Assembly: GCA_964458155.1 (NCBI GenBank)
Contig: CAYWGP010000199.1
Coordinates: forward strand, 11,894 to 75,893
DNA from: an uncultured Bacteroides sp.
GTDB taxonomy: Bacteria; Bacteroidota; Bacteroidia; Bacteroidales; GCA-2748055
Length of the DNA: 64,000 nucleotides
Reading direction: 5' to 3'
In this document: positions 5,744-54,366 of the stretch, one piece after another
How the letters are laid out: every line of letters begins with the position of its first letter
Numbering within the stretch: position 1 is the stretch's first letter
Program-made: the position numbers and the translations under genes
The notes under the pieces: model-generated
What the model was told of the DNA's origin: nothing
Seen by the model: the letters and a program-made list of their open reading frames with translations, nothing else
The model's database searches: none

Positions 5744-5749
5744 AAGGCT

Positions 5750-11208: not shown

Positions 11209-11219
11209 TCATAATCGGA

Positions 11220-28318: not shown

Positions 28319-28323
28319 ACGAT

Positions 28324-29967
28324 ATGGATTTAAATATAAATACGATTGACCTGATCATTATTGTTGTGTACCTCGTGGGCATACTCCTGGTGGGTATCCT
28401 CTCCGTGCGATTGAAAAAAATGACCAGTGAAGGATATTTCCTGGCTGGCATGGGCCTGGGATGGGTCATGGTGGGAGCAGCACTCTTCGCCTCTAACATA
28501 TCCACCATTCATCTGGTTGGCCTGGCTGCCTCAGGGTATAACGAGGGACTGGTTTGGGGGAATTTTGAATGGCTGGCAGCCATTACCCTGATCCTGCTTG
28601 GACTGGTATTTGCCCCTTTCTACTTTAAAAGCAGGATCTCCACCTTACCGGAGTTTCTGGAGAAGCGCTATGGATCCACAGCCAGAACCATCATGGCTTT
28701 CATTGCCATCATTGGTGCGCTATTTGTACATATCGGAATGAGCCTCTATGCGGGTGCGGTGGTTTTTCATGCATTCTTTGGAATCAATGTATTCACTTCT
28801 ATTCTGCTGATATCTGTAATCACCGCCATCTATACAGTACTGGGTGGATTGAAAGCAGTGGTGGTCACCGAAAGTGTCCAGACCGTTATCCTGATCATTG
28901 GTGCCATTTTGCTGACCGGTTTTGCTATTGCAGCACTACCCGATCATGGAGTAAACACCCTGGCAGAGCTGAAAGCCCAATTGAAACCGGGTCAGCTGAA
29001 TATGTTGCATTCCAAAGAGAGCCTGGGATTGCTGGGCGAAGGAGGGTTTGAGTCGGGACTCACCTGGTATGCCTGCCTGCTGGGTTATCCGGTTCTTGGA
29101 CTATGGTACTGGTGTTCGGACCAGACCATTGTACAAAGGGTCCTGGGAGCTAAAAGCAGGCATGACGCACAGATGGGACCTATTTTTGCCGGATTCCTGA
29201 AAATCCTCCCCGTATTTATCCTGGTCTTCCCCGGAGTGATTGCCTATGTTTTGTTCAGGGATATCATAGGAACAGATGCCAACCAAACGCTGCCGGTGAT
29301 GATTGATCAGCTGCTGCCAACAGGTTTAAAAGGAATAATGGCGGCCACGCTGCTGGCAGCATTAATGAGCACCATTGCTGCAGCTCTGAACAGTTCGGCT
29401 ACCCTGGTGGCAGTGGATATAGTAAAGAGGGTAAAGCCAGGCACTACTGACAGACAGCAGATAAAATACGGACGAATTGCTGCCATTGTGGTGATGCTGC
29501 TGGCCATGCTCTGGTCCACCCAGGGGGATAAATTCTCAAGTATTTTCGAGGCCATCAATAAGATAGCAGCAGCCATTGCGCCTCCGGTCGCCACTGTTTT
29601 CCTCTTTGGTGTATTCTCCAAAAGGGGAACCAACAGGGCTGCCATCGTCACCCTGGTATCGGGACTCATACTTGGCATTACTGCATTCTGTCTCGATTTT
29701 GAGCCCATCAGCGGACAAATGTACCTGACCAGGGGATTAGGCATACCTTTTATGATGCAGGCCTGGTGGCTCTTTGTAATATGCACGGTGATCTATTTTG
29801 TGGTGAGTTATACTTCTCCCAAACCTCCCGCTGAGGTGATAGAGAACTACACCTGGGATAGTCCGCTGGCGGTTATTAGCAGAGGTAAATTCGAAGGAGC
29901 AAGAGATGTCCGTCTCTGGGCGGGGATCCTTGTATTGACCCTAATAATAATGTATTTCATTTTTTAA
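28324..29967 (+). CDS. Sodium:solute symporter family (SSF/SGLT-like) sugar transporter
   Basis: It has about 13-14 TM segments and typical SSF segments (GYFLAG..., LPEFLEKRYG, WYWCSDQTIVQRVL). I prefer the ATG at 28324 over the track's TTG at 28315, which overlaps the upstream stop. Confidence 0.85.
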   Translation: MDLNINTIDLIIIVVYLVGILLVGILSVRLKKMTSEGYFLAGMGLGWVMVGAALFASNISTIHLVGLAASGYNEGLVWGNFEWLAAITLILLGLVFAPFYFKSRISTLPEFLEKRYGSTARTIMAFIAIIGALFVHIGMSLYAGAVVFHAFFGINVFTSILLISVITAIYTVLGGLKAVVVTESVQTVILIIGAILLTGFAIAALPDHGVNTLAELKAQLKPGQLNMLHSKESLGLLGEGGFESGLTWYACLLGYPVLGLWYWCSDQTIVQRVLGAKSRHDAQMGPIFAGFLKILPVFILVFPGVIAYVLFRDIIGTDANQTLPVMIDQLLPTGLKGIMAATLLAALMSTIAAALNSSATLVAVDIVKRVKPGTTDRQQIKYGRIAAIVVMLLAMLWSTQGDKFSSIFEAINKIAAAIAPPVATVFLFGVFSKRGTNRAAIVTLVSGLILGITAFCLDFEPISGQMYLTRGLGIPFMMQAWWLFVICTVIYFVVSYTSPKPPAEVIENYTWDSPLAVISRGKFEGARDVRLWAGILVLTLIIMYFIF

Positions 29968-32215: not shown

Positions 32216-33295
32216 ATGAGAAAAATCTTCATGTTTTCAATACTTGGCTTGATTTGCTGGTTTCCCTATCTGGGGCATTCTCAAACCTTCGACCTGGGAG
32301 AGATAAATTCCGCCAGATATAAGGTTTATATACCCGCTGACTGGAACGGGGGATTGCTTATTTATGCGCATGGTTATGAGGAAATTGGGGAAGAGATTGA
32401 AGAGTTTAGCAGGGAAGTGGACGACTTTATGGAGATTTTTACTTCCCGTGGATTTGCCTTCGCAGCCTCAGCCTACAAGAGACAGGGACTGATTATAAAG
32501 GATGGAATAGAAGATTCGGAAGCGCTCAGATCCTATTTTGAGTTTAAGTACGGTAAACCTTCTCTTTGTATCATAACTGGGCATTCCATGGGAGGGATCA
32601 TATCTCTGGCTAACATAGAAAAATATCCGGCAGAATACGATGGTGCAATGCCCCTGTGTGGCTGGTTGTCTCCGGTCTACTCACTCCTCAGAAATGGACT
32701 GGATATGCTGGCAACATACGATTATCTCTTTGGTAAAAACGATGGTGAAATTGTGAATGGCCTGGATTATATTGATGCTGAGTCGATCCGGGAAAATCTT
32801 TCGCGGAAACCGGAACTAACGTCTCTGTTCGCTGAACACTTCCGTATAAGGAAAGATGATATGCCCGGGGTGATAGAATTCAACCAGCTGGTACTAAAGG
32901 AAACCGTTACCTGGCTTGGAGGCCTGCCGGCAGGCAATTCTCAAACCATTTACGACGGGTTTGGCAGCGACAACAGTGCCATTAACAGGGATATCCTGAG
33001 ATATCAGGCAGATCCCGGAGCAAGGGAATATTATATGCAGTATTACACTCCCTCCGGGAATCTTTCTGATCCCGTTTTAGCCCTGCACACCCTCTATGAT
33101 GAGCTGTTGCCCGTATCTAATTACCGGTATTATGATGAGCTTACCGATATACAGGGGACAGGTGATTTTTACGTACAACAATATGTTATTCGTGACGGGC
33201 ATTGCGAATTTACCACCGGGGAGATGGCAGATGCCTTTGATCAATTATTGCTTTGGATCAGGGAAGGTCAGCGCCCGGACCCTGTTTACCGGTAG
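32216..33295 (+). CDS. Secreted alpha/beta hydrolase (GHSMGG nucleophile elbow)
   Basis: It has a signal peptide (…PYLGHSQ) and ITGHSMGG. I recognise no finer family. Confidence 0.65.
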   Translation: MRKIFMFSILGLICWFPYLGHSQTFDLGEINSARYKVYIPADWNGGLLIYAHGYEEIGEEIEEFSREVDDFMEIFTSRGFAFAASAYKRQGLIIKDGIEDSEALRSYFEFKYGKPSLCIITGHSMGGIISLANIEKYPAEYDGAMPLCGWLSPVYSLLRNGLDMLATYDYLFGKNDGEIVNGLDYIDAESIRENLSRKPELTSLFAEHFRIRKDDMPGVIEFNQLVLKETVTWLGGLPAGNSQTIYDGFGSDNSAINRDILRYQADPGAREYYMQYYTPSGNLSDPVLALHTLYDELLPVSNYRYYDELTDIQGTGDFYVQQYVIRDGHCEFTTGEMADAFDQLLLWIREGQRPDPVYR

Positions 33296-33372
33296 ATATT
33301 TGATTCTACTGTTCATTGGAAATATTAACTGGAAGACCAGCATTTAGTGAAACGTTCTAACAGCCTGGAAAC

Positions 33373-35526
33373 ATGAAGAGATTAAGCTTTTTTCTAGTGA
33401 TGGTAATGATCATCGGATTGCCTTTCACACTTTTAGCACAGGGTGATAAAGACTTTTTTCTGTGGTGGGATTTTAATGACAAAAAAGAGATCCCCAACCT
33501 GCATGTTGATATGTCAGAAGAAGAGGAGGAGGCTCCTCTTGCTTCAACAAAAGAAATTGTTAGCTCAAGCAATTTTGAAATACACGGCCTTGCCAGATAT
33601 GTTGACGGTGTAAAGGGCACAGCAATGAAATTTGATGGATTTTCATCCTATATAAATGGATGGCCGGATTTACCAGAAGTATTTGATGAAGAAGGTTATG
33701 AAACGGATCCAATGCCGGAAGAAATAAGCATCGAAGCCTGGATAGCCATTGGTGCATATCCATGGAACTGGGCTCCGATTTTAACTATTGGGAAGTATAA
33801 AATTACCGGCTTCTATTTTGGCATAGATTCCCGGGGCCGTGTAGGATTTCATATGTCCGACGCAACCTCGGTATGGCATGAATGCAATTCAAAACTAAAC
33901 TCCGAGACTCGTTTGGGCCTCGATATTCATAAATGGTACCATGTAGTTGGTACATACAGTCCTAAAAAAGGGTTGGCCGTTTATATTAATGGTGAACTGG
34001 CAAATACGTATAATGATTTTACCTTTGATTATGGTATAGCTTATAGCAACATGGATGAAGGATTCTCAATAGGCAAGAATAGTGTTGACCTGCCACCCTC
34101 GGATCCCATACGCGATTGGGCAACGTACCCTTCCAGCTACACATTTGACGGTATTATTGATGAATTGATAGTCCACAAGAAAGCCCTTACCAAAGATGAG
34201 GTACGCAGGCAATATACATCTCTTATACCGGAACATGATCCTCCATTTGAATCCAGGAAATTTCCAACCGTTAAGTCCTCGGGCAGATTTGGCGCGAATT
34301 ACACTCGCTTGAAATTTTACCCTGAATGGGATGCAATCTGGCCCGTTGGCGATTACATGGATGTAGTGGTTCAGTTTGATGAACTCCCGACAAAAGTGAT
34401 GTTCTGGAGAGGCACCAGGTATTCAGCCTGCCAGGTTTCAGAAAATGGCAAATGGATGGCAGATCAAAGCAGGGAAACAGGGTCCAACTGGTTCCTTGGA
34501 GAAGATTCAAGAGACAATATACCGACAGGTTGTGTGGAACACATGAGTGATGTGCAATGCCGGAGTTCCCGGGTTGCCATTATAGAGAATAATGATGCAA
34601 GGATACTGGTTAACTGGAGATACCTCCAGATGGACGTAAAATTCAGGCAGCTGGATCTGCCCAATGAAACAGGTTTTGGAGAATGGGGTAATGAATATTA
34701 CTATATCTATCCAGATGGCGTCACAGTTCGAAAAGTACTACCGGGAAGAGGTGGCTGGCAGGAAACTATTTTCCTCAATGAACCGGGTACGCGTCCAGAA
34801 GACAATGTGGAATTGGAAGCCTGCGTCTTACTAAACATGAAAGGGGAGAGCAGGTCTTATACCTGGGAACATGGATATCCGGTTTTTGACCTGGATGATG
34901 CACTTATCCAACTCACTAATTTCAAATCTGAGTACAAGCCCTATATGATTTTCCGTGAAGGAGGAGGATTTGATGTATTTAATTTAGAAGTCAGGCCTCA
35001 ATATTCACACTTTCCCTGGTGGAATCACTGGCCCGTTGCCCAGATAATCTCAGATGGACGCAGTGCAAATGCTCCGGACAGGGCTGCACATTCATCCTTA
35101 AGCTGGGGAGACCCAAATGGTGATGCTGCCTTATATGGAATGACCAATCAGGATCCTGCTAAGCTGGTTGAACTGGCCAAATCGTGGAACCGGCCTCCAA
35201 AAATGAAAGTTTTAGGAGAGGGCATTATTCACAAAGGGTATGACTATACTGAAAGAGCTTATGTATTAGATACAGAGGATAAGGAGGCAGCCATTGAGCT
35301 TGAATTTGACGCAAGTGAAAGTAATCCCCTGTATAATCTGGCTCTGGTAGTGAATAACTGGGGTGGTCAGGAAGTAAGTCTAAGATTAAATGGGGAAGAT
35401 GTTGCCCCGGGAAAAGATTTCAGAACCGGAATTGAATATGATGTTGAAGGGAATATGAAATTAATTGTATGGATAAAGCATAAATCCAAAAACAAAACAA
35501 GGATAAGTTTATCACCTGTTATCTAA
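33373..35526 (+). CDS. Exported LamG-containing protein of unassigned family, paralog P2 (717 aa)
   Basis: It has an SPI-type signal (LPFTLLAQG), IEAWIAIGAYPW, VVVQFDELPTKVMFWRG, GCVEHMSDVQ, YYYIYPDG, WQET, and WNHWPVAQIISDGRSANAPDRAAHSSL. Confidence 0.85.
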   Translation: MKRLSFFLVMVMIIGLPFTLLAQGDKDFFLWWDFNDKKEIPNLHVDMSEEEEEAPLASTKEIVSSSNFEIHGLARYVDGVKGTAMKFDGFSSYINGWPDLPEVFDEEGYETDPMPEEISIEAWIAIGAYPWNWAPILTIGKYKITGFYFGIDSRGRVGFHMSDATSVWHECNSKLNSETRLGLDIHKWYHVVGTYSPKKGLAVYINGELANTYNDFTFDYGIAYSNMDEGFSIGKNSVDLPPSDPIRDWATYPSSYTFDGIIDELIVHKKALTKDEVRRQYTSLIPEHDPPFESRKFPTVKSSGRFGANYTRLKFYPEWDAIWPVGDYMDVVVQFDELPTKVMFWRGTRYSACQVSENGKWMADQSRETGSNWFLGEDSRDNIPTGCVEHMSDVQCRSSRVAIIENNDARILVNWRYLQMDVKFRQLDLPNETGFGEWGNEYYYIYPDGVTVRKVLPGRGGWQETIFLNEPGTRPEDNVELEACVLLNMKGESRSYTWEHGYPVFDLDDALIQLTNFKSEYKPYMIFREGGGFDVFNLEVRPQYSHFPWWNHWPVAQIISDGRSANAPDRAAHSSLSWGDPNGDAALYGMTNQDPAKLVELAKSWNRPPKMKVLGEGIIHKGYDYTERAYVLDTEDKEAAIELEFDASESNPLYNLALVVNNWGGQEVSLRLNGEDVAPGKDFRTGIEYDVEGNMKLIVWIKHKSKNKTRISLSPVI

Positions 35527-35539
35527 ACAGTCTCATGAT

Positions 35540-37276
35540 ATGAAACGAATTTCAATTATCACAGGTATTTGCGTATTATTCATTGGAATATCCGGGCTTT
35601 CCGCCCAGATTATTCCTGTAAGCTCAGGGTACAATCAGAATATCGAGTGGGAAAGCGTATTTACAGATGGTCCTCCGGGAAAGGTAAACAGGGCCGTGGT
35701 GGATTCAGACGGTAATTATGCAGTAATTTTTATGCCGGATGACCAATCCCGCATCCATAAAATTGATGAAAATAACGGCGAAAGAATCTGGACCGTTACC
35801 ATAGAAAATACAGCCGGCTTTGGTATTTCTGAGATTAATGATACCGGACGTTGTGATTACATAGTCAGCGGCGGTATAGGTGAAACGCAGGAAAGATGGG
35901 TTGCCAGGCTAAACGGAGATGATGGATCGACTATGTGGAGCAAAACTTATTATTCAGATGGCGGAACCTGGGAATATGATGCGGTAAGAATGACGATCGT
36001 CGGATCGGATGGCTATATCTATGGTTCCGGTTTTATAAGGGGGGAGGAGCAGCAGACTATTTTCATGGATTATGGTGGTGAAGCTACTGTTATGAAAATA
36101 GACCCGGACAACGGCGATGAGATCTGGACACATTCCAATCCAAATACAGCTTATGCACTCGCGCTTGTAGAAGCTTCAGATGGTCATCTCTACTATGGCT
36201 CCGCAGTGCATGACGAAGATCTGACACTCACAAAGCTGAATAAAGATGGTGACGAAATCTGGACCAGGAGTCTGGCCGGAACCGATATGATCATTCCTTC
36301 TGATATGGCTATCGATCTGGGAGATACCATCTATTATGCCGGTCATGCCGGTAGAAGAGGCGCAGGCCATCCTTATGACTATTCCAGTGTAAAATTGGAT
36401 ACTGCTGGAAATGTTTCCTGGGTGAAACATTATGCGAATCCCCGCGGATACAGCTTAAGTTATATACGCAGTGAATTATACGGGATTAAAGTCGGGCCTC
36501 ATGGTGTTTATTTATTTGGAGGAACCGGAGATGAAAACGAAAGCTACAGTGTTGAAAATCCTCCATTTGTATCATCAGATATCTGGAATGGCTGGGTGAT
36601 TATTACAGACCGGGATGGTCAAATAATAAGAAGCGATGTATATTGTCAGGATGAGGTAAATACTGCAACTGAATATGGTTGTATTATTGATGGGGGATAT
36701 GTAATATTCAATGATACCGACGCGCAGGGGGATACAGAAGTTGGTGTATTGAAAATTGTATTTGACAGCATACCGGGTAGTGGCACTAAATATGAGTTAA
36801 CAACAAGTTCAGGTTCAGGAGGATCTGTATTCCCGGAAGGAATAAATAATTGTGAAGCTAATACCATTGCACCAATTGTTGCCACAGCTGACGAAGACTA
36901 TAGATTTGATCACTGGTCGGGCGATATCAGTGGCTCAGAAAATCCAAAGACAGTAGTCATGGACTCTGATAAAAGTATCACCGCACACTTTGTGTTAACA
37001 ACCGGGACAGCTCCGGAACAAGCAGAAATTCAAAACATTATTGCTTACCCTAATCCTGCCAGAGGAGAAAGCCTTTCTATTCAGATCACAGATGTTCAAT
37101 CCATGATAAACATTGAAATAATAGATGTTAATGGCCGGTCGGTACTTAATAAAAATGAACAGATCGATGGAAATCGGCTGCTCCAGGTGCCAATTATAGA
37201 AATGCCTGATGGCATCTATTTTTTATCCGTAAGCTCGGACCAGTTCAGGCATAATCAAAAACTGGTAATTCGATAG
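35540..37276 (+). CDS. T9SS-secreted beta-propeller-repeat protein with InlB-B-repeat-like domain
   Basis: It has repeated D(S/G)DG.(Y/L)Y..G units (DSDGNYAV, GSDGYIYGSG, ASDGHLYYGS). One bacterial-repeat domain is present (GGSVFPEG...YRFDHWSGD...ITAHF). The C-terminal sorting domain is IAYPNPARGESLSIQI...GIYFLSV. Confidence 0.7.
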   Translation: MKRISIITGICVLFIGISGLSAQIIPVSSGYNQNIEWESVFTDGPPGKVNRAVVDSDGNYAVIFMPDDQSRIHKIDENNGERIWTVTIENTAGFGISEINDTGRCDYIVSGGIGETQERWVARLNGDDGSTMWSKTYYSDGGTWEYDAVRMTIVGSDGYIYGSGFIRGEEQQTIFMDYGGEATVMKIDPDNGDEIWTHSNPNTAYALALVEASDGHLYYGSAVHDEDLTLTKLNKDGDEIWTRSLAGTDMIIPSDMAIDLGDTIYYAGHAGRRGAGHPYDYSSVKLDTAGNVSWVKHYANPRGYSLSYIRSELYGIKVGPHGVYLFGGTGDENESYSVENPPFVSSDIWNGWVIITDRDGQIIRSDVYCQDEVNTATEYGCIIDGGYVIFNDTDAQGDTEVGVLKIVFDSIPGSGTKYELTTSSGSGGSVFPEGINNCEANTIAPIVATADEDYRFDHWSGDISGSENPKTVVMDSDKSITAHFVLTTGTAPEQAEIQNIIAYPNPARGESLSIQITDVQSMINIEIIDVNGRSVLNKNEQIDGNRLLQVPIIEMPDGIYFLSVSSDQFRHNQKLVIR

Positions 37277-37316
37277 TACTGATAATCGAGCTATTAATTG
37301 ACTCAATATATTAAAT

Positions 37317-38999
37317 ATGATGAAAGCCCTTACTTTTTCATTCCTTCTTTCCCTTGTCCTTTTTTCATGTGATAAAACAGTATACAAAACTATCTCCAGG
37401 GATGATTATGTGGATAAAATGAAAGCTGCCTGGATCGGTCAGATGATCGGTGTGGGCTGGACAGAATCCACCGAATTTAAGTATGTAGGCGAAATTATTC
37501 CTTCCGGTGAGGTCCCGGAATTTGACAGCAAAGCAGTCAACGCATTCGATCAGGATGATATCTATGTTGAAATGACCTTTATCAGGACCCTGGAACAATA
37601 TGGCATAGATTGCTCCATAAGGCAGGCTGGAATAGACTTTGCCAATTCTGGATATATGGTGTGGGGGGCAAATGAAATGGCCCGTGAAAATTTGCGAGAT
37701 GGCATCGCTCCTCCGGAATCGTCACACCCGGAATATCACAAAGGTGCCGACTGGATAGACTATCAGATCGAAGCCGATTTCTCTGGGATCTTATGCCCCG
37801 GCATGCCTTCCCAGGTAATTGACCTGGGTGAAAAATTCGGAAGGATAATGAATTATGGCGATGGTCTTTATGCGGGCCAGTTCATAGGTGGTATGTACGC
37901 TGCTGCATATTTTGAGAGTGATATTCAAAAGATCATTGAAGCAGGCCTGGCCTGCATACCTCCGCAGAGTCAGTATGCAGAATGCATCAGGGATGTTGTT
38001 CAATGGCACGAAGAAGATCCGGTGAACTGGGAAAATACCTGGCAGCTGATTGAAGATAAATATCGAAAGGATCCCGAATACCAGAAATACAAGGCTGTTA
38101 ATGACAACTACTGGGTTGAGATGGATGCCAAGCTTAATGCTGCATACATTGTTATGGGCTTACTTTACGGGAATGGGGATATTGACGAAACCATCATCAT
38201 ATCCATGAGATGTGGCAGAGATTCAGATTGCAACCCATCCAACGCCGCAGGAGTTCTTTTCGCTTCGCTCGGAATGGAAAATATCGACAGGAAATATTAT
38301 GAGCAGCTCGATTATGAAACAAAATTTTCCTATACCGATTACAATTTCAATGAACTGCTTCAAACTTGCACAAAACTTACTGAGCAGTACATTCTCAATT
38401 CCGGGGGAAAGATAATAGAAGGACCAGATGGAGAAGCCGTCTATCATATTCCGGAAAAAGCTGTAATCCCCTCAGAATTTCAGACAAGCTGGGAACCCGG
38501 GGACTTTGATCCTGAGAACAGGTATACCAGAGAGGAGCTCTCACAGATCTCTTACTACCCGGCCCGAATCTATGACGAGCACATAAGTACATGGATACCT
38601 GAAACCTGGAAAATTTCCCATTCAGCAAAAACCGGCCAGGAGCTCTCCACCTCATGGAAGGGAAAAGAGGGAGTGGTTCTTAGTTCTGTGTATAAGCAAA
38701 GCAAGGGTCCCTTGATTTACATTGATGGCGTTGAGTTTGAAGAAGGAAAAAAGCATTTCCTTAGCTTTTCGGTCAGCCACGAAGATGAAGGCAGCTGGGA
38801 ATTGATCGTATCCATTAATGACCGTGAATATATCAGGGAAGCAATCAACAGGGAAAGCTGCATGGATGGTTGGAAAGAATTCAAAATTGATATAAGCGAT
38901 CTCGCCGGATCAGAGGTTTATGCCGAAATACAACAGGAGTACAACGGCAATGAAAAATCAACTGCCTACTGGCATGCCCTTAAATTTATCAGTGAGTAA
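37317..38999 (+). CDS. Exported ADP-ribosylglycohydrolase (ARH)-fold protein with C-terminal beta-sandwich, ARH-1
   Basis: It has a lipobox (LVLFSC). ARH-like motifs are AAWIGQMIGVGWTESTEF, AFDQDDIYVE, and LYGNGDIDETIIISMRCGRDSDCNPSNAAGVLFASLG. About 170 extra C-terminal residues follow. Confidence 0.7.
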   Translation: MMKALTFSFLLSLVLFSCDKTVYKTISRDDYVDKMKAAWIGQMIGVGWTESTEFKYVGEIIPSGEVPEFDSKAVNAFDQDDIYVEMTFIRTLEQYGIDCSIRQAGIDFANSGYMVWGANEMARENLRDGIAPPESSHPEYHKGADWIDYQIEADFSGILCPGMPSQVIDLGEKFGRIMNYGDGLYAGQFIGGMYAAAYFESDIQKIIEAGLACIPPQSQYAECIRDVVQWHEEDPVNWENTWQLIEDKYRKDPEYQKYKAVNDNYWVEMDAKLNAAYIVMGLLYGNGDIDETIIISMRCGRDSDCNPSNAAGVLFASLGMENIDRKYYEQLDYETKFSYTDYNFNELLQTCTKLTEQYILNSGGKIIEGPDGEAVYHIPEKAVIPSEFQTSWEPGDFDPENRYTREELSQISYYPARIYDEHISTWIPETWKISHSAKTGQELSTSWKGKEGVVLSSVYKQSKGPLIYIDGVEFEEGKKHFLSFSVSHEDEGSWELIVSINDREYIREAINRESCMDGWKEFKIDISDLAGSEVYAEIQQEYNGNEKSTAYWHALKFISE

Positions 39000-39000
39000 G
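38949..39000 (+). repeat. Copy A of a 52-nt imperfect direct repeat (the true 3' end of the ARH-1 gene)
   Basis: aatgaaaaatcaactgcctactggcatgcccttaaatttatcagtgagtaag matches 42018-42069 at 47 of 52 positions by hand alignment. Confidence 0.85.
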
Positions 39001-39077
39001 GAAATGATGGTATTTCAATAGTGCCCCGGATTACTTACTGACAACAGACTCTGCATTACTCCACAGCTCATATGAGC

Positions 39078-42002
39078 TTATTTGAAGTGTACTATTTTTT
39101 TGGAATATGTACCTTCTGAACATTGCATTACACAATAATATACCCCATTCGCTAATTCTGCCCCGGAAATTTGGGTACTATATAAACCGGGCTTGTGTTT
39201 GGCATCTACCAGACAGCTTAAAAGGCGACCATTCGTATCAAATAAGTTAATCACCACATGCTCTTCACGGCTAAGTTCATAATAGATAGTTGTTAAACTG
39301 GTAAACGGATTCGGATAGGCATCATGCATTGTGAATGATAAGGACTCAGGTATTGGAATACCTGAAGGGATGTCAATATCATTTTGTGCTCCGGGTGTTT
39401 TTCTATGCGCTGTATTCTGCCAGAAAATAGACACCCTGTTATCCTGCATTGGATCAGATAGGGAGATTGAATTACCAGATACGGGCCAGGGATAAACAAC
39501 TTTGTACTCAATGTGATCGATCAACTGACTGGAATCGTTATATAAAGATATTTGATCGCCCCTTTTACTTAATCCAAAGCTAAAATCACCGATTGCAGAT
39601 GTTGTATTATATTTTCCTCTGAAGTCTTCAATATCTGCACAAACCACAAGATATTCATGTGAATTCAATTCAATTCCCGAAGGGAAGATAAACGGCTCAT
39701 TTCCATCATCAGTAAGCTGCCAGTTTGATAAGTCGATATTAATTTCTTTAGGGTTATAGAGCTCAATCCAATCATTTGTTTCTGAGTCTGTATAGCAGAT
39801 TTCATTTATAACAACTCTTTCGAAATCCTGCAAAGGTCCAAAGATTGCAGTTAGCGTTTTATTTTCGTTCATGCTACATGCAATTGAAATATCGGATGAT
39901 TCGATGCCTTCCCATCTCAAAAATTCAAAGCCTAAATCGGGAATAGCCGACAAAGTAAGCTCTAGTTCCTCGAAATATTTGCCGCTAAAAGGATAGTCTT
40001 TAATGATTTGGTTGTTTATTTTAACACTACCTCCCTTATTGGGCACAGAGACTATTAGTTCCTTCATGTTCCCACTCAGGTTAAAAAAATGTTTGTAATG
40101 TTCAATTATATGTTCAGCTCTGTTTTCCAGGAAGCTTTTAGCAGTATTCCTGTTTTCTTCTATATACCAGCTGCCACTGGCATCCCAACGATTTTCATGA
40201 TTTCCAATCTCATTAATAATTAAATCAGCCCTTGCATCAACCCATGGCTTAGAATTTTCAGGCTTAAAATTGGTAGCCATTAAATCACAAAGGCTTGCTA
40301 TAAACAGGTTTTCAAATTCCTTATTCTCTAACAAACTCCTTAATATAAAAGTAGACCAGGGAGGGTTTGGCCAGGTTTCTGATCCATCTGGTTCTGTTGC
40401 AATTTCCAGGGTGTTATATGTGGCATCAAATCCATCATCTTCCCAGGCGGCTAGGCCTGCATCAATATCAAAAACAATCCATCGCCATTTTCCTTTTTCT
40501 CCTTTTTCCCGCCAAAACTTCATGTTATTCCCCGGCCAATCAACATTTGCCATAAATATTTCAGCATTCTGATAGGTAGCAAAGTAGGCGATATCTATCA
40601 TTGTTTTGGCAGTTTGGTAATTCGCTTCAAGGCTTAAATCATGATCTTGCAGAAAATGCGTCAACTCAGCATATTTGTCAATATCACCGGCAATAGGCCA
40701 ACCTGGGTGATAAAAGGGTTCATCGGTTTCAAAACCATTGAGAACATCAATGCTGTCCGCATCAATATTAAAATTATCAGCAACATAATGCTCATTGATT
40801 TTTTCCATCATGTTTAGTATTCCCCAGTATTCTCCGTTAATGAATACTATAACCGGCTGAAAAGCCTGTACTGCTAAAATATCCTGAACCAATCCATTGC
40901 CAGTGGCATCGAAAATATTGTAATCCCCATTATCATTTCGCATGATGAACGATTCGAAACTGTCAATATCCTTTTCTTTGAATAATCGAAATTCGAATTT
41001 TCCGTTTCCATATTTTCTTCTGGCGAACAAAGCCAGGGATTGTTGATAGTCATACCCTGTACCTGATTCGTTACCAAATATTTTCATGCCTGCATTTGAT
41101 TCCAGACCCAAAGAATTTTCGGAATCGTAAAACTCAAAATAAACTTGTTTCTCAAGGATTCCGGGATTGAGGTTAAATAATCCGTTTTCGCCAAAAAGCT
41201 CCTCAGGGTCGGCTGAAATAGAAATCATGGGTAGATTCAGATCATCCACATCAGATGCCATAATATAACTTTTTGTGACAATGGGGCCCGGAAGTTTTCC
41301 TTCCTCGAAAATCCGTGCCTTTATTACAATACTTGATGAAACACTTATTGGCGAACTGAATATAGATGAGGATGCCTCAGGCAAGGATCCATCAGTGGTA
41401 TATCTTATACTTGATCCAGATTCCGAACTCAATGAAACAGATGTTCCACTTCCACTTATATAACCTCCTGTTAAAGAGAAAATTGGTTTTTCGCCAATTA
41501 TTCCTGTAATGCCATTATTGCCATTTGCTTCACCAGGTGTTGGTGCATCAAATAAAGTGAAATTTTGAAAATCATTAAAATCACGACCATATGAAATATC
41601 GCCATATAGTTGAATTGCTGAAATACTGTCAATAACAAGGCCTGCTGGATTTGAAAGGAATATGGATTCGCCTTCTGATTTTATCTTAAAATTGGTGTGT
41701 AAATTACCAGGATCAAATCTATTTTTTCCAGAAGCAAATATTAACAAAAATTGCCCTGATTCTATTGAAACCTGAGGGAATATCCATTTATTTAGTTCGT
41801 TAACATCATCAGACAAACTGAATCCTGCTAAGTCCACAGTCTCAGTACCCACATTGACCAATTCAATCCAATCAACGAAATCCCTGTCTTCATCAGCAAC
41901 AGTGCTGAAATTCAAAGACATAATTTCATTTAAAAAAATCTGTGCAAAAGATATTTTAATTGAGATTAGTAGAATGAAAATGATAAGTTGAAACTTCAGC
42001 AT
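39078..42002 (-). CDS. T9SS-secreted CotH kinase-family protein with two lamin-tail domains
   Basis: The N-terminal LTD is LNEIMS...DWIELVN...LAGFSLSDD. A CHB_HEX_C-like segment is present (IRYTTDGSLP). The CotH core is MKIFGNESG...FINGEYWGILNMMEKINEHYV...WRWIVFDIDAGL. The second LTD is VINEICY...DWIELYNP...LSNWQLTDD. The C-terminal sorting domain is AYPNPFTSLTTIYYEL...GVYYCVM. Confidence 0.8.
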   Translation of the reverse strand: MLKFQLIIFILLISIKISFAQIFLNEIMSLNFSTVADEDRDFVDWIELVNVGTETVDLAGFSLSDDVNELNKWIFPQVSIESGQFLLIFASGKNRFDPGNLHTNFKIKSEGESIFLSNPAGLVIDSISAIQLYGDISYGRDFNDFQNFTLFDAPTPGEANGNNGITGIIGEKPIFSLTGGYISGSGTSVSLSSESGSSIRYTTDGSLPEASSSIFSSPISVSSSIVIKARIFEEGKLPGPIVTKSYIMASDVDDLNLPMISISADPEELFGENGLFNLNPGILEKQVYFEFYDSENSLGLESNAGMKIFGNESGTGYDYQQSLALFARRKYGNGKFEFRLFKEKDIDSFESFIMRNDNGDYNIFDATGNGLVQDILAVQAFQPVIVFINGEYWGILNMMEKINEHYVADNFNIDADSIDVLNGFETDEPFYHPGWPIAGDIDKYAELTHFLQDHDLSLEANYQTAKTMIDIAYFATYQNAEIFMANVDWPGNNMKFWREKGEKGKWRWIVFDIDAGLAAWEDDGFDATYNTLEIATEPDGSETWPNPPWSTFILRSLLENKEFENLFIASLCDLMATNFKPENSKPWVDARADLIINEIGNHENRWDASGSWYIEENRNTAKSFLENRAEHIIEHYKHFFNLSGNMKELIVSVPNKGGSVKINNQIIKDYPFSGKYFEELELTLSAIPDLGFEFLRWEGIESSDISIACSMNENKTLTAIFGPLQDFERVVINEICYTDSETNDWIELYNPKEINIDLSNWQLTDDGNEPFIFPSGIELNSHEYLVVCADIEDFRGKYNTTSAIGDFSFGLSKRGDQISLYNDSSQLIDHIEYKVVYPWPVSGNSISLSDPMQDNRVSIFWQNTAHRKTPGAQNDIDIPSGIPIPESLSFTMHDAYPNPFTSLTTIYYELSREEHVVINLFDTNGRLLSCLVDAKHKPGLYSTQISGAELANGVYYCVMQCSEGTYSKKIVHFK

Positions 42003-42017
42003 TTGTGATGCATATAA

Positions 42018-42068
42018 AATGAAAAATCAACTGCCTACTGGCATGAGCTGAGATTTATCAGCGAGTAA
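42018..42068 (+). pseudogene. Orphan 3' gene fragment (16 codons + stop) homologous to the end of ARH-1; copy B of the direct repeat
   Basis: It translates as NEKSTAYWHELRFISE*, against NEKSTAYWHALKFISE* at 38949-38999. The frame is closed by a TAA immediately upstream (42015-42017). Differences are two synonymous, one conservative (K>R) and one A>E. Confidence 0.7.
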
Positions 42069-42083
42069 GCAGGAGTGATCTGC

Positions 42084-44903
42084 TCAAGCCTTTATTTCAA
42101 TATCCAGTGCTTCTGTCGCTTGTCTGTCGATCCAGATAAGCAGTTTATAAGAACCATCCGTATCTCTAACGATGCCCTGTTTGCAATCAACCTGCTTTCC
42201 ATCAATGCTAACCCGTGCCCTTTGTTTTGAGTTCCATTGTTTGAAGATCATGCAGATGTTTTCTACAGGGCTGTCCTCATTCCCAAGTACAGTCATGGAT
42301 ATCTCATCCGCTTCTTTTTCAAAAACATAGGCACGTTGCGCTTTATCGTATTTCCCGGTGCATCCTCTTACTGCACTTAGAAGCGGAGGCTCTAACCACG
42401 AAAGTGCCAGGGGGATCAGCTCCAGGGGAGCCTGCCTGAGCATCCCTTCCAGTAAGATTTTTGACTGGTAAGGCCTGTTCCCAAACTGAGCATCGTAATC
42501 AGGGGGATAGATATGGGACAGGGAGCTGTGACAGGTTCTGTCAGGATAGCTGGCATAGCGTCCATCTGAAGGCATCTGAGATACCGGCCAGTGGTTCCAC
42601 GTAGGGAAAATAGCATATTCGGTTATCTCCCCTCCATAAACATTTGACCATTGGATCTCCTCCACGATGGTTACCGGGTCATATTCGCCTTTATAGTTAA
42701 TATGATGAATATTGGATCCTTCAGGACCTTCAATTCCGTCAGGGGGTAAGGGATTCCAGTCATAGCTATCATATGCTCCGTCTATGCGGACAATGGTAAA
42801 GGTTTCCTCCCGTTCAATGAGATCATGCGGATGCTGGTCGGGTCCGAATATGGCCATGGATTCCTGCCACTCATGGATCCTTTCACCGCTCGTCCATAAA
42901 TGTTCCACCTTGGCGGCTACTCCATCCGGGTAGATATAATAGTACCAGTCGGCCACATCATACCAGCCTGTTTCCTCCACGTAGTTTGCCTTGATTTTCT
43001 TTACATCGACCAGGGGGAACCTGTAATGAACCACCACCCTTGCAGCAGTGTTTTCTATGATTCTTACGTGGTTGTACAGGCATTGCTTATCTGACATCGG
43101 TTCCTGGCATCCTTCGCCTCCCGAGGTGCTCCAGGTCTCGTTAAACTCATTGCTGTACCAGAAGTTGTTCTCATTGACCATCATCGGAATATAGCTTACT
43201 CCTCGCCAGAAAACGAACCTGGAGGGATTATCGTCAAATTCGACAATAACATCCGCATGATCCCCGAATCTCCACATATTATCCCAGCTATCATAGAATT
43301 TGAGATTGGTATAATATCCGCCAAAGGATTTCCTGTTTTCTCCCAGGGGAAGTACCCGTTTATCAAGATCGGCTGTGGCATCAGGTGCATATAAGGCAAA
43401 AGCAGACTGGATTTCATCCTGTGACAGGGCCACATCGTAAATTTTCACTTCATCGATGAGGCCATCCAGGGAATAAGCCCCCGGAAAGGTATTTTCTCTA
43501 ACAGGATCTGTGGGCCTGCGCTCTTTTCCTTTTCCAATCTGAATATCTTTTGAGGATAATTCAATTTCCGCCTTTGCAACCTGTTTTTCATCTGTAAGCC
43601 TGCCATCCACATAGAGCATCATCTTCCCGGATGTCTGGCTGTAGGTTGCCGAAATGTGGTACCAGGTCTTTCTCTCCAGGAAGACATCCGATGTAAGTTC
43701 CTCCCACACCCCTCCGACTCTCAATTTAAAACCCGGATGACCATGACCGTTTATCCCAAGGAAATACCCGGTATCATCCTCCTTCAGGTACTTCACAACA
43801 AATTCAATTTCATCGAAGTCAATTTCCTGCTCAACATCCACATCTCCTTCCTGGTTTTCCGGATCGCCCCCAACAAGTCCAATGGAAAGATCTCCTTCCC
43901 GCTTGGCAAGGTCGGTAATATCATACTCACCTCTGAACAGGCGAACCTCCTCAGGTACATCATCTGCCTGCTGCACGATGGGGCACCAGCTCCAGGGATA
44001 GGCGCCGATGGCCACCCATCCCTCGAGAGTGATCTCAGCTGAAGGTTTCACGGCTTCATCCGAAGGTATCTGAACGGCGGTTTTGTATCCGTCAAATTGT
44101 AAGGAAGTTCCTGAAACTCCCTTTTTCCAGATGGTCTTATCTCCAGGGACGATGGATTCAGCATTAGTTCTGGATTCTTTCGTAAGATCTCCACCGGCTT
44201 CATCAAATTTAAACCATGCCAGGGGCTCACGGATAGACTCTTTTATTATGGGATTTCCTTCAGTAATTTCTGCCTCAGCATTGCTCGTTGCCTCTGTTCT
44301 TTCCGTTTCTACGATCCCTCTTTGTGACAGCATAAATATCTGGGTAATCCTGTTACCCGGATCATTCCAATCATCAATCTTTTCAGTACCGGTTTTAATG
44401 ACGCGCGTGACCATCCCCTCACTGGTCAATGTAAAATATTCATCAACAAACTGGTTTGCCGCAGCCCCGGTATGCGGATTTGTCCCTTCAAAATCAGGAA
44501 GGTACCTCCAGTGGATAGTAGCCTCTGTCTCGGAACTTTCAATAAGGGATACATGTGAATAGGTATTTACCCTGTCCGGCATCATATCGCTCCCATCTCC
44601 CCTGCGGGGAATAATCTCCTCCACGAAGAACTTCTTCCCAGAAGCATTTTCCCAGTACGGAAGGTAGCTTGCCCCTCTCCAAAAAATGAATTTTCCCGTG
44701 CCTGATCCCAGGTCTACCACAATATCTGCGAAATCGCCAGTTCGATCAAACTGCTCCCAGTCTGCACCGCTTAGCAGGCGGGTATGGTAAGCTCCAAAAT
44801 CTCCCTCCTGCACGCTATCCTGGTTTGTACAACTGCTAAGAGCCATTGAAAGCAATGTGATCATTACCAGGCCAACTAATGATATTTCACCCCTGTTTTT
44901 CAT
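42084..44903 (-). CDS. Exported LamG-containing protein of unassigned family, paralog P3 (939 aa, lipoprotein)
   Basis: It has a lipobox (SMALSSC) and an N-terminal module like that of P1 (ADIVVDLGSGTGKFIFWRGASYLP...YSHVSLIES...IHWRY). Other shared motifs are LEGWVAIGAYPW, VIVEFDDNPSRFVFWRG, GCQEPMSDKQ, YYYIYPDG, WQES, and WNHWPVSQMPSDGRYASYPDRTCHSSL. Confidence 0.85.
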   Translation of the reverse strand: MKNRGEISLVGLVMITLLSMALSSCTNQDSVQEGDFGAYHTRLLSGADWEQFDRTGDFADIVVDLGSGTGKFIFWRGASYLPYWENASGKKFFVEEIIPRRGDGSDMMPDRVNTYSHVSLIESSETEATIHWRYLPDFEGTNPHTGAAANQFVDEYFTLTSEGMVTRVIKTGTEKIDDWNDPGNRITQIFMLSQRGIVETERTEATSNAEAEITEGNPIIKESIREPLAWFKFDEAGGDLTKESRTNAESIVPGDKTIWKKGVSGTSLQFDGYKTAVQIPSDEAVKPSAEITLEGWVAIGAYPWSWCPIVQQADDVPEEVRLFRGEYDITDLAKREGDLSIGLVGGDPENQEGDVDVEQEIDFDEIEFVVKYLKEDDTGYFLGINGHGHPGFKLRVGGVWEELTSDVFLERKTWYHISATYSQTSGKMMLYVDGRLTDEKQVAKAEIELSSKDIQIGKGKERRPTDPVRENTFPGAYSLDGLIDEVKIYDVALSQDEIQSAFALYAPDATADLDKRVLPLGENRKSFGGYYTNLKFYDSWDNMWRFGDHADVIVEFDDNPSRFVFWRGVSYIPMMVNENNFWYSNEFNETWSTSGGEGCQEPMSDKQCLYNHVRIIENTAARVVVHYRFPLVDVKKIKANYVEETGWYDVADWYYYIYPDGVAAKVEHLWTSGERIHEWQESMAIFGPDQHPHDLIEREETFTIVRIDGAYDSYDWNPLPPDGIEGPEGSNIHHINYKGEYDPVTIVEEIQWSNVYGGEITEYAIFPTWNHWPVSQMPSDGRYASYPDRTCHSSLSHIYPPDYDAQFGNRPYQSKILLEGMLRQAPLELIPLALSWLEPPLLSAVRGCTGKYDKAQRAYVFEKEADEISMTVLGNEDSPVENICMIFKQWNSKQRARVSIDGKQVDCKQGIVRDTDGSYKLLIWIDRQATEALDIEIKA

Positions 44904-44914
44904 TTCAGACCATT

Positions 44915-47326
44915 TTATAGATTTGCTAATTCTTCCGTGTTAATCTCGATGATACTATCTTCAATCCCATCTGAACTCGCCCTGACCAGAATCTTTCCTG
45001 GATTTTGAGTGGAACTTACAAGCAGAAGGCAAAGGCCATGGAATGCTGATCGTTCACTGGCCTGGTAACTTTCAATACAGGTAGGGTCTCCATTGCCCAC
45101 ACATTTAAGGATACCCTCACCTTCAATGGAAAATTCAACCAGGTTATTTGCATTGGGGCAAATATTTCCATCCGCATCCATAATCTTCACCGTGATAAAT
45201 GCCAGGTCCTGTCCATCGGCATGAATGCTGGTCCTGTCCGCTTCCAGGCCGATTTTTGCTGCCGGTCCGGCTGTCTTTATCTCCTTTTCAGAGAGGACCT
45301 CGCCATCCCTGTTGAATCCCACAGCCCTGATACTGCCGGGCTGGTATACTACATCATCATAGATGTACCGGTAGGCCCCTTCCTGTTTTTGTTTCCGGCC
45401 CTTTGACACCCCATTGACAAAGAGTTCAACTTCGCTACAATTTGAGTAGATATAAACAGGAGTAGGCTCTCCTTCCCGGCCTTCCCAATTCCAGCTTGGC
45501 AGAAGGTGTATCATCGGATCATCCGTCCACTGACTCTGGTAGAGGTAAAAGCGATCCTTTTTAAATCCGCACATATCTACAATTCCAAAATAGGAGCTGT
45601 GTGCTGGAAAGTACCCTTCTTCATAAGGATCGGGTTCACCGTGATAGTCAAATCCCGACCATACAAACTCTCCTGCCATCCACGGTGCTTTCTGAAGTTC
45701 AAACTCCACATCCGGTAAGGCTCCAAATCCGGTATTTACTATGTCGTAAGATGTGATCTGCTTTGATTCGTGCAAATATCCGCTATACACTTCTTTTACC
45801 GGGAAATGATATTCTCCCCTGGTACTGAGTGTGGCACTGGATTCGGTAGATAACAGGGGCAGATTCGGAAATTCTGCGTGCATTTTATCGTAGCGGTCCT
45901 GCCAGTAATTCATGCCAAATACATCAAAACACTTCTCTAACTCTGAATCAAATTTTGTGGTTAAATGAACTCCTGCGTTTACAGGTCGGGTCGGATCCAT
46001 CTCCCTGCAAATATCTGATAACAGCTTTGCATGTTTTTTGCCTTCCTCAGTATCCAGATCAGGAATCTCATTCCCGATACTCCACATAATTATGGATGGA
46101 TGGTTCCTATCCCGCCGAATCAATGCTCTTGTATCTTTTTCCGCCCATTCTTCAAACCAGATATTATAAGCGTTTGGGACCCCGTACTTTGAAACGGACC
46201 ATTCATCAAAGGTTTCGTCTATAACAAGGATACCAAGCTCATCACACAATTCAAGCTGCTCTGGCGATGGCGGGTTATGGGCCGTGCGTATAGCATTTAC
46301 TCCCATCTCCTTCATGATCTCTAACTGACGTTCTGTGGCTCTTTTGTTCACTGCGGCACCCAGAGGTCCCAGGTCATGGTGCAGATTCACCCCTTTCAAT
46401 TTCAAATGTTTCCCGTTCAGGAAAAAGCCCTTGTCAGAATCGAAGTGGAAGTAGCGCACCCCAAATGTTGTTTCATATTCATCCACTACCTTTCCTTCAT
46501 GAAGTACTGAGGAAACGGCCTTGTATAAATAGGGGGAATCAACAGACCATAGTTCTGGGTCCGTGATCTCCAGCTGCTGAACTATTTCTGTTTCTTCTTC
46601 TGCATCAAGCGTTATGTTGTCCTTTGTTTTTTTTGTCAATACATCTCCATTGGAATCTAAAATTACCGTCGACAGCTCCACACCGGCTGAATAGGATGCT
46701 GAATTATTAATCCATGTTTTCACTTCTATTTCTGCATGATCCTCGCTAATATGCGGTGTGGTGATGTAGCTTCCCCAGTGAGCAACATGGATGGGATTTG
46801 TATAGCTAAGCCAGACATTCCTGTAGATGCCAGATCCCGGATACCACCTGGATGAATAATCCTGGTTTTCTACACGAATGGCAATAATATTTTCCCTGTC
46901 CCTTTCTATTTTGTCCGTCAGGTCAATATAAAATGAGGTGTACCCGTAGGGCCAGCCCCCCACATATTCGCCGTTAAGCCATATCTTAGAATTCCTCATG
47001 ATGCCGTCGCATTCAAGCACCAGGTTCTCAGTACCCGGACGCACTTTGAACGATTTACGGTACCATGCAACTCCCGGGTAAGGCAAATATCCTCCTTTGT
47101 AATTCACCTCTTCAGTGAATGGCCCTTCGATGGCCCAGTCATGGGGCAGATCAAGCACTCTCCACTCAGAATCATCGAAGTTGACGTAAGGCGCATTTTC
47201 CATATCACCATGTGAAAACTTCCATTCCGAATTAAAGTTAAGCCGGAGCCTGGTTTGCTCGGCTGTTGAGCTGTCACAAGCGTTAAGCAGAGATAAGATC
47301 AGCGTTAGAAGGAAAATTTTTTTCAT
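44915..47326 (-). CDS. Glycoside hydrolase family 2 (beta-galactosidase/glucuronidase-like)
   Basis: It has a signal peptide, a sugar-binding N-domain (WRVLDLPHDW), the acid/base region RNHPSIIMWSIGNEI and WSGFDYHGEP. Confidence 0.9.
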   Translation of the reverse strand: MKKIFLLTLILSLLNACDSSTAEQTRLRLNFNSEWKFSHGDMENAPYVNFDDSEWRVLDLPHDWAIEGPFTEEVNYKGGYLPYPGVAWYRKSFKVRPGTENLVLECDGIMRNSKIWLNGEYVGGWPYGYTSFYIDLTDKIERDRENIIAIRVENQDYSSRWYPGSGIYRNVWLSYTNPIHVAHWGSYITTPHISEDHAEIEVKTWINNSASYSAGVELSTVILDSNGDVLTKKTKDNITLDAEEETEIVQQLEITDPELWSVDSPYLYKAVSSVLHEGKVVDEYETTFGVRYFHFDSDKGFFLNGKHLKLKGVNLHHDLGPLGAAVNKRATERQLEIMKEMGVNAIRTAHNPPSPEQLELCDELGILVIDETFDEWSVSKYGVPNAYNIWFEEWAEKDTRALIRRDRNHPSIIMWSIGNEIPDLDTEEGKKHAKLLSDICREMDPTRPVNAGVHLTTKFDSELEKCFDVFGMNYWQDRYDKMHAEFPNLPLLSTESSATLSTRGEYHFPVKEVYSGYLHESKQITSYDIVNTGFGALPDVEFELQKAPWMAGEFVWSGFDYHGEPDPYEEGYFPAHSSYFGIVDMCGFKKDRFYLYQSQWTDDPMIHLLPSWNWEGREGEPTPVYIYSNCSEVELFVNGVSKGRKQKQEGAYRYIYDDVVYQPGSIRAVGFNRDGEVLSEKEIKTAGPAAKIGLEADRTSIHADGQDLAFITVKIMDADGNICPNANNLVEFSIEGEGILKCVGNGDPTCIESYQASERSAFHGLCLLLVSSTQNPGKILVRASSDGIEDSIIEINTEELANL

Positions 47327-47361
47327 GTCCAGGATTTTTGCTGTAGGGGGATGGATGCGTC

Positions 47362-49515: not shown

Positions 49516-49544
49516 CTTGTTCTTATTTAAATATACCTGATCCT

Positions 49545-51050: not shown

Positions 51051-51071
51051 TTTTTAATTTAGTTGCCGGGG

Positions 51072-54158: not shown

Positions 54159-54366
54159 AGCTATGAACTATTTAGTTAAAGGAATATGTATAACAATATT
54201 AAGCCAAATTACATTAAGGGAAGTCTTAATATACTCCAAAATAGTTAGGATATGAGTCAGTGGTTTTGGGCGAAGCCTACGGTTTGGTGTACTGGAACTT
54301 CACCAGCTTGCATTATTAAAGAACCATTATGATTTGTATTCTAACCTTTTGTATACCTATATTTCA

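Follow-up and report, generated by a model that had tools for sequence, protein, structure and literature searches.

How did a gene of the CotH family come to stand between two copies of its neighbor's 3′ end? The question is raised by a stretch of 64,000 nt from contig CAYWGP010000199.1 of an uncultured Bacteroides sp. (hereafter the window, whose positions are used throughout), in which a 52-nt imperfect direct repeat brackets a CotH gene. One copy of the repeat (copy A) is the 3′ end of ARH, a gene of the ADP-ribosylglycohydrolase family; the other (copy B) is an orphan version of the same end, located beside a gene termed P3. We read the repeat as a recombination scar, with a probability of about 0.78: a module containing CotH would have entered the ARH/P3 junction, anchored on the ARH 3′ end, and would have been trimmed later. 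Relatives used for comparison are coded L001-L031. The features concerned are the following (ORF, open reading frame; T9SS, type IX secretion system).

37317..38999, plus strand: ARH gene, 560 aa, intact, ending in copy A (ORF and Pfam)
38949..39000, plus strand: copy A, functional ARH 3′ end, NEKSTAYWHALKFISE and stop, plus G
39001..39077, no strand: spacer between ARH stop and CotH stop (A flank), homologous to the L016 and L022 spacers that hold rhaM pseudogene pieces
39078..42002, minus strand: CotH-family gene, 974 aa, with LTD, CHB_HEX_C, CotH kinase-like, LTD, and T9SS sorting tail (Por_Secre_tail) domains (Pfam)
42003..42017, minus strand: remaining 15 nt of the CotH 5′ leader (junction sequences, alignment)
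42018..42069, plus strand: copy B, orphan non-coding ARH 3′ end, NEKSTAYWHELRFISE and stop, plus G
42070..42083, no strand: ancestral short spacer between ARH stop and P3 stop, its position kept in CotH-less loci (alignment; L004 and L012 sequences)
42084..44903, minus strand: P3, 939 aa, Laminin_G_3/pentaxin-like (Pfam); synteny in L012, L016, L021, L022, and L026

The direct repeat

Positions 38949-39000 and 42018-42069 align without gaps and agree at 47 of 52 positions, which reproduces the count of the earlier note on this DNA; the first 28 nt are identical. With up to three mismatches allowed, this 28-nt core occurred at two sites only in the 64-kb window and was not matched in any of 100 dinucleotide-preserving shuffles, i.e. 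no match is expected by chance. Copy A consists of the final 16 codons of ARH, the stop codon, and one further base. ARH itself matches Pfam family PF03747 (ADP_ribosyl_GH; E = 4e-26), has an additional C-terminal domain, and is represented by full-length orthologues in L012, L004, L013, L016, and L021 (77-87% nucleotide identity). Copy B is directly preceded by a TAA (42015-42017), and the P3 stop lies 15 nt beyond its end. Gene layout and Pfam assignments confirmed that the two copies bracket the minus-strand CotH gene at 39078-42002.

Unoccupied ARH/P3 junctions

In the earlier note, copy B was taken as what is left of an ARH gene end formerly adjacent to the convergent P3 gene, and CotH-less relatives with ARH ending about 15 nt from the P3 stop were predicted. 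Such relatives were found by scans with the ARH protein. In L012 (about 86% nucleotide identity), L004 (about 85%), and L013 (about 77%), ARH is followed by the P3 3′ end without CotH, and the distance from the ARH end to the P3 stop is 13-15 nt (13 nt in L012). In the alignments, L012 1-3892 corresponds to window 35116-39000 and L012 3841-5256 to window 42018-43435. L004 has the same ARH/P3 junction as L012; in L013, ARH is followed by a P3-like remnant. P3 is convergent with ARH in these CotH-less relatives, and in the window it lies upstream of CotH on the same strand.

The functional ARH ends of the unoccupied junctions are of the copy B type. They read HELKFISE in L012, HGLTFTSE in L004, and HEIKIIKE in L013, compared with HELRFISE in copy B (each followed by the stop). 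Between copy B and the functional L012 end, 3 of 52 positions differ, and the sequence 3′ of copy B is homologous to that 3′ of the functional ends of these relatives. These comparisons support the view that copy B is the displaced original ARH end of an ancestral ARH/P3 junction. The split of this junction lies 52-61 nt upstream of the ARH stop. Unoccupied junctions are known only in diverged relatives.

Two observations on these relatives may be added. L004 also lacks the equivalent of window 42401-54307 (about 12 kb; L004 4552-4590), which includes most of P3, GH2, a Laminin_G_3 gene, SusD, and SusC, and the last 330 nt of P3 are left beside ARH. L013 and L027 both come from the metagenome assembly GCA_003359195.1; they represent a CotH-less ARH/P3-type junction and a PQQ/CotH/P3 locus, respectively, on contigs of diverged lineages.

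The five differences between copies A and B were polarized with L012, the orphan copy of L016 (see below), and other ARH ends. Two of them, which make up a Glu>Ala codon change, fall on the copy A branch. The third position of a Leu codon changed on both branches, and K>R and a synonymous Ser change belong to the copy B branch. When ARH ends were compared across loci, the copy A position was occupied by an Ala codon (GC[CGA]) in the window, L016, and L022 and by GGA (Gly) in L004; both orphan copies and the majority of the other ARH ends have GAG (Glu). The Ala codon of copy A is derived and is found only in ARH genes adjoining the CotH module. From the L012-type consensus, copy A of the window differs in the Ala and Leu codons only. 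The polarized substitutions are too few to test the former argument for divergence of copy B during a coding phase. This argument is unsupported, although the conclusion drawn from it, that copy B is an old ARH end, stands. If the insertion is common to the window and L016, the copy B changes postdate the loss of coding.

A less trimmed occupied site

The arrangement is not confined to this genome: L016, a 40.5-kb metagenome contig of about 80-88% identity, has the same order of ARH, CotH, orphan ARH end, and P3, and in L021, L022, and L026 CotH lies beside P3 without a remnant. Between ARH and CotH, L016 contains 374 extra nt, which hold a rhaM pseudogene (L016 11756-12080) covering residues 1-98 with 63% amino acid identity to the rhaM of L024 and an in-frame stop (blastn, tblastn). 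L022 retains another part of rhaM (L022 9946-10030; approximately 100 nt or 32 codons). No rhaM remnant was detectable in the window.

A further 117 extra nt separate the CotH leader from the orphan copy in L016. Blastn with 7-nt words matched this sequence to itself only. An origin from the 3′ end of the hydrolase gene that precedes CotH in other relatives (see below), from the P3 end, or from the ARH flank was rejected, as local alignments were no better than those of shuffles. The orphan ARH end of L016 is contiguous over 55 nt, perhaps 61 nt. It differs from the functional L012 end at 1 of 52 positions, compared with 10 of 52 for the functional end of L016 itself, and from the orphan of the window at 4 of 52. 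The two copies of L016 differ at 5 of the 28 core positions.

The window derives from an L016-like state by two microhomology deletions. One of them, between two AATGAAA repeats of 7 nt, took out about 117 nt that had separated the leader from copy B; the blast segments have window 42018-42024 in common, i.e. the first 7 nt of copy B (AATGAAA), which are shared with the leader. The abrupt 5′ edge of copy B at 42018 is thus a secondary deletion joint and not the original one. The other deletion removed the rhaM remnant and left the palindrome at 39066-39077. Of the proposed import of about 3 kb by recombination, the recombination is upheld and the size is not, since the module consisted of the CotH leader, CotH, rhaM, and about 117 nt. 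The full leader, of which 15 nt remain in the window, is about 30 nt long and is common to L016 and the loci in which CotH follows the hydrolase gene in its native context (L023-L025).

The extra sequence in L016 bears on the possibility that a second, full-length ARH paralogue once stood between CotH and P3 and that copy B is all that is left of it. After a tandem duplication of ARH, the layout would have been ARH / rhaM / CotH / ARH / P3, with the second ARH mostly lost afterward. Such a history would agree with the duplication or relocation of ARH in this group (L016, L021), with a tandem duplication of the PQQ gene in L013, and with the frequency of spacer deletions. Nevertheless, at least three events are needed, no locus retains more than about 61 nt of the second copy, and the 117 nt beside the L016 remnant have no similarity to ARH. 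We consider it distinctly improbable.

Rearranged genes were located as follows: L016 has a second, internally deleted ARH at 4783-5861, upstream of a 717-aa Laminin_G_3 gene; the sole ARH of L021 lies at 11008-12690, likewise upstream of the 717-aa Laminin_G_3 gene; and the tandem PQQ-repeat genes of L013 occupy 632-1794 and 1862 onward.

The left joint

The A flank, of the form GGAAAyrATGGT...CTCCACAGC, is common to the window, L016, and L022 only, as is the Ala codon of the preceding ARH end. The left joint therefore arose once. The palindrome GCTCATATGAGC (39066-39077) in this flank corresponds to the hairpin found downstream of CotH in all relatives. The flank also contains an inverted copy (10 of 11 positions; 39031-39041 vs. 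38989-38999) of the ARH stop region. The flank was rejected as a candidate for the rhaM 3′ end, since its sequence resembles rhaM too weakly, even though the spacing in L022 would agree.

In the window, L016, and L022, the joint lies exactly one base after the ARH stop. This position would be natural if the target had been duplicated in situ, i.e. if a CotH-rhaM fragment had been inserted non-homologously or by template switching at staggered breaks about 55-62 nt apart across the ARH stop. Both copies would then originally be recipient sequence, Glu>Ala would have arisen later in copy A, and the ARH bodies would have been reshuffled by homologous recombination. The departure of window copy A from the L012-type consensus in two codons only would fit as well, and no donor with ARH beside rhaM was found. 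However, no standard enzymatic mechanism is available for a target duplication longer than 50 nt. Moreover, the functional copy of L016 is further from the consensus (10 of 52) than its supposedly neutral orphan (1 of 52), the opposite of what would be expected unless extra recombination steps are added. We regard an in-situ duplication as unlikely.

Composition, divergence, and contexts of CotH

CotH has a G+C content of 0.371 in the window (GC3, the value at third codon positions, 0.319) compared with 0.43-0.47 in the flanking genes. A G+C profile, suggested earlier as a check, falls to 0.36-0.39 exactly between the repeats. The G+C content of CotH is 0.36-0.37 in every locus, and its native-context neighbors in L023 and L024 have values of 0.34-0.41.

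Divergence between the window and each relative was measured at fourfold-degenerate sites (L717, 717-aa Laminin_G_3 gene, 33373-35526):

L021: CotH 0.20; P3 0.85; PQQ 0.62; L717 0.60; ARH 0.70
L022: CotH 0.23; P3 0.50; GH2 0.33
L026: CotH 0.24; P3 1.03; GH2 0.87
L024: CotH 0.54; L717 1.53; hydrolase saturated
L016: CotH 0.44; P3 0.41; ARH 0.83; PQQ 0.66; L717 0.75; GH2 0.77

The low values of CotH and P3 against L016 indicate that the tract of CotH, orphan copy, and P3 was shared more recently than the rest.

CotH occupies at least four genomic contexts among the relatives. In L022, ARH is convergent on CotH, and the P3 stop abuts the CotH start (TAAATG) without an orphan copy. In L021, L026, and L027, CotH is convergent on a PQQ-repeat gene, with neither an adjoining ARH nor an orphan copy. 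L026 has kept a 32-nt leader after the P3 stop; from a spacer like this one, a deletion between AATC repeats would give the TAAATG junction of L021 and L022. The order is hydrolase>CotH>rhaM in L023-L025 and hydrolase>CotH>LamG>rhaM>SusC>SusD in L028-L031 (61-63% amino acid identity). The hydrolase>CotH adjacency of these seven loci, all from lower-G+C lineages, is the most deeply conserved context. The corresponding feature of the window is:

32216..33372, plus strand: putative hydrolase gene (359 aa) and the 77-nt spacer 3′ of it; 65-68% identity to relatives (blastn)

This position, the native CotH site in the lower-G+C relatives, is vacant in the window, which has a single CotH copy.

Because its G+C content, fourfold divergence, and contexts differ from those of the flanks, CotH appears to be a module that is exchanged laterally, within a region of strongly mosaic history. 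Judged by the flanking genes, the CotH-bearing loci do not form a monophyletic group. In the CotH tree, the window and L016 carry the orphan copy and one subclade (L021, L022, and L026) lacks it, which fits a single loss.

A more far-reaching interpretation is that CotH, with or without rhaM, is a recombinase-free portable cassette among polysaccharide-utilization loci of related sediment Bacteroidota. The duplicated ARH ends, whose 28-nt core is unusually conserved, would be reusable in this case, whether they provide arms of homology or a cryptic recombination site that is acted on in trans, and would permit gain, swap, and precise loss; the presence of CotH would then be a reversible polymorphism at the population level. 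We think this quite unlikely. Precise loss in itself could be allowed by the 28-nt exact identity of the two copies, and it is predicted to regenerate the 'empty' junction.

The CotH protein has 86-89% amino acid identity to those of L021, L022, and L026 despite a synonymous divergence of only 0.20-0.24; for P3, identities of 82-89% go with synonymous divergences of 0.5-1.0. Judged from these values, CotH protein evolution looks relaxed or diversifying. The ORF of 974 aa is longer at its start, by 27 codons (window 41922-42002), than the NCBI protein for this gene (P0001, 947 aa). L016, L021, L022, and L026 conserve the additional N-terminal residues together with their ATG, and the public annotation probably truncates the signal peptide.

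Mobile-element, RNA, and regulatory signals

Pfam scans of the large ORFs in window 20-64 kb revealed no transposase, integrase, or recombinase, and no inverted repeats pairing the ends of 39001-42017 were found, in agreement with the earlier note. Its dismissal of a simple target-site duplication was likewise borne out: a transposon as the source was rejected, as terminal inverted repeats are missing and the direct repeat is imperfect and 52 nt long, compared with identical duplications of 2-14 bp. An integron gene cassette was rejected on the lack of an integrase, the fold of the spacer (z = -0.6), and the lack of an Rfam match. With up to six substitutions allowed, the core was absent around CotH in L021 and L023-L031, being restricted to ARH ends and the two orphan copies. 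It never flanked CotH in 11 other CotH loci.

These searches also concern the idea that the copies are the attachment (att) sites attL and attR of a small non-autonomous cassette, which targets the ARH 3′ end at the 28-nt core and is mobilized in trans. An identical core followed by diverged arms resembles the trace of elements that insert at the 3′ end of a gene and rebuild it, and CotH occurs in several contexts and is younger than its flanks. Against this stand the lack of an integrase or transposase in the insert and in window 20-64 kb, the restriction of the core to ARH ends and orphan copies, and its absence from the flanks of CotH in the 11 other loci. In addition, the copies of L016 differ at 5 of 28 core positions, and neither significant secondary structure nor an Rfam match was found. 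This makes the idea highly improbable.

A scan of 36-45 kb with Rfam gave a single chance-level eukaryotic match, promoter and terminator scans yielded sites no more numerous than in shuffles, and the ARH/CotH spacer showed no significant structure (z = -0.6). These scans thus provide no evidence for either copy as a structured RNA or terminator, and copy B shows no sign of a present function as far as RNA families, promoter, or terminator signals are concerned. Copy B seemed better conserved than neutral DNA should be, but purifying selection was rejected as an explanation: 4 differences in 52 positions between the window and L016 agree with the 85-88% identity of the CotH-P3 tract inherited along with it. 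The single difference in 52 positions between the L016 orphan and the L012 end is a little odd. Copy B lies antisense within the 81-nt P3-CotH spacer and, judging from this arrangement, is probably co-transcribed with P3 and CotH.

Assembly support

CotH, copy B, and P3 are independently represented in L003 (ENA ERZ27295567), which covers window 39033-44260 at 100% identity. ARH and copy A are covered by L001, from the ERZ27295567 sample, up to 39035, and by L002 (JGI 3300004113) up to 39033. The ends of L001 and L002 and the start of L003 all fall within 39033-39035, in the ARH/CotH spacer; they come from two samples, and none of the contigs crosses this point. L001 and L003 overlap by 3 nt, and the point lies in the right arm of the 10/11 inverted copy of the ARH stop region.

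In the alignment, the orthologous spacers of L016 and L022 run through the point equivalent to 39033-39035. Because these spacers are continuous, the join is evolutionarily real, and a misjoin at this point as the source of the repeat was rejected. The coincidence of three public contig ends at 39033-39035 is what speaks for an assembly artifact (or, more generally, for a chance similarity). Yet the chance expectation is 0, L003 reproduces CotH, copy B, and P3 at 100%, and L016, from another sample and with about 80-88% identity, has the same layout; the likelihood of such an origin is negligible.

Over 9084 nt, the identity of L001 to the window is 99.96%, and the first 354 nt of L001 are unlike the window upstream of 29952. 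This mismatch, beside a sodium:solute symporter gene, is a strain-level replacement breakpoint.

Mode of integration

The window contains an intact resident ARH gene, foreign DNA, and an orphan ARH end in the same orientation on the original flank, relatives display the unoccupied junction, and the history of the insert differs from that of its flanks. From this set of features, which characterizes insertion scars, we infer the mechanism and the order of events. Initially, ARH and P3 would have been convergent, with their stops 13-15 nt apart. A module of a short leader, CotH, and rhaM, whose native site would be behind the 359-aa hydrolase gene, may then have entered this junction, with roughly the final 55-62 nt of ARH as the anchor of its integration. 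ARH would have kept a complete 3′ end to the left of the insert (copy A), and its original end would have stayed on the P3 flank, to the right of the insert, as a non-coding orphan (copy B). The orphan copies are of the Glu type, like the empty sites of L012 and L013; the Ala-type end and its flank occur in the window, L016, and L022.

Integration by one-sided homology is the most likely route, and two variants are conceivable: (i) a linear fragment may have paired homologously in ARH and formed an illegitimate joint at its other end, within the anchor region; or (ii) a single crossover may have taken place with a circular intermediate that carried an ARH end. Both variants leave a homologous stretch on each side of the insert and therefore fit the duplicated ARH end. 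The illegitimate joints of one-sided-homology integration usually show a microhomology of 3-10 bp, and a duplicated homologous stretch is the signature of a single crossover, with lacZ duplications of 109-950 bp obtained experimentally (PMC3240628). The layout would later have been passed between lineages by ordinary homologous recombination. In the window, two microhomology-mediated deletions would then have trimmed the insert, one of the rhaM pseudogene and one of about 117 nt at AATGAAA.

Several points weigh against this reconstruction. Among the CotH loci of the relatives, none was found in which ARH is convergent on a full-length rhaM-CotH pair. Copy A may be the recipient's own sequence. 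Since no donor has ARH beside an intact rhaM, some probability, small as it is, falls to an in-situ duplication or a decayed ARH paralogue. Homology-facilitated illegitimate recombination usually deletes recipient DNA rather than duplicating it (PMC3240628). At the L016 joint, microhomology amounts at most to ACAAT with a 1-nt gap, and the adjoining 117 nt match nothing. The empty sites could in principle result from secondary loss of CotH by recombination between copies A and B; such a loss would recreate the same junction, so that individual empty sites cannot be polarized. Finally, the heavily mosaic gene histories limit reconstruction of the order of events.

Comparison with known systems

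Displacement of modules or C-terminal regions leaves orphan 3′ fragments in Rhs loci, contact-dependent inhibition (CDI) loci, and type VI secretion system (T6SS) effector-immunity loci (PMC5361080, citing Jackson et al. 2009). As in these systems, the module joins via homology in a conserved resident gene that keeps a complete end; the former end is pushed downstream in the same orientation, no dedicated recombinase is involved, and the distribution among relatives is patchy. Unlike in these systems, the ARH orphan measures only 52-61 nt and reflects one displacement instead of an array, the cargo is a convergent, unrelated CotH with rhaM and not a toxin tip with its immunity gene, and there is no evidence of reuse of the orphan.

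With homology-facilitated illegitimate recombination (de Vries and Wackernagel 2002; Prudhomme et al. 2002; summarized in PMC3240628), the locus shares homology at one end only (the anchor in the ARH 3′ region, the far end being non-homologous), short candidate microhomologies close to or at the joints, and foreign DNA from a related lineage. It differs in that the 52-61 nt of anchor are found on both sides, whereas the experiments usually delete recipient DNA, and in that later deletions have obscured part of the original joint. A Campbell-type single crossover of a circle also leaves the homologous stretch, and nothing more, directly duplicated on the two sides of the insert. There, however, the homology measured 109-950 bp (PMC3240628) compared with about 55-62 nt here, where no remnant of a circular donor or replicon is visible. 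Elements that integrate at gene 3′ ends (phage and integrative conjugative element att sites, cis-mobilizable elements) resemble the locus in that the gene is intact on one side and a partial 3′ end has been displaced to the other, and in the identical core with divergent sequence after it. In contrast to such elements, the locus has no integrase and no conserved att core around CotH elsewhere, and its cargo is one or two ordinary genes of a polysaccharide-utilization locus.

The feature is a clear but ordinary insertion scar; its general kind is known, its setting is new, and it represents no new mechanism or element class. It is a well-documented gene addition to a polysaccharide-utilization locus of an uncultured member of the Bacteroidota without mobile-element machinery, and the case comprises the empty site, the occupied site, a less trimmed intermediate, and the likely native context of the cargo. 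Short orphan gene ends are usable to polarize gene gain in metagenome-assembled genomes, and secreted proteins of the CotH family are exchanged between lineages faster than their neighbors.

Locus setting

The neighborhood is a locus of the polysaccharide-utilization type, with SusC/SusD, GH2, and several lectin-like and T9SS-secreted proteins, as well as sugar transporters and LacI and ROK regulators. Two further ORFs of the ADP-ribosylglycohydrolase family are located on the minus strand of the window, at 60631-62121 and 63056-63943; the latter matches only the C-terminal part of the ADP-ribosylglycohydrolase domain. A rhaM-like stretch lies at about 27986-28137, between the genes 25228-27843 and 28315-29967. 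The families that take part in the rearrangement therefore recur in the same locus.

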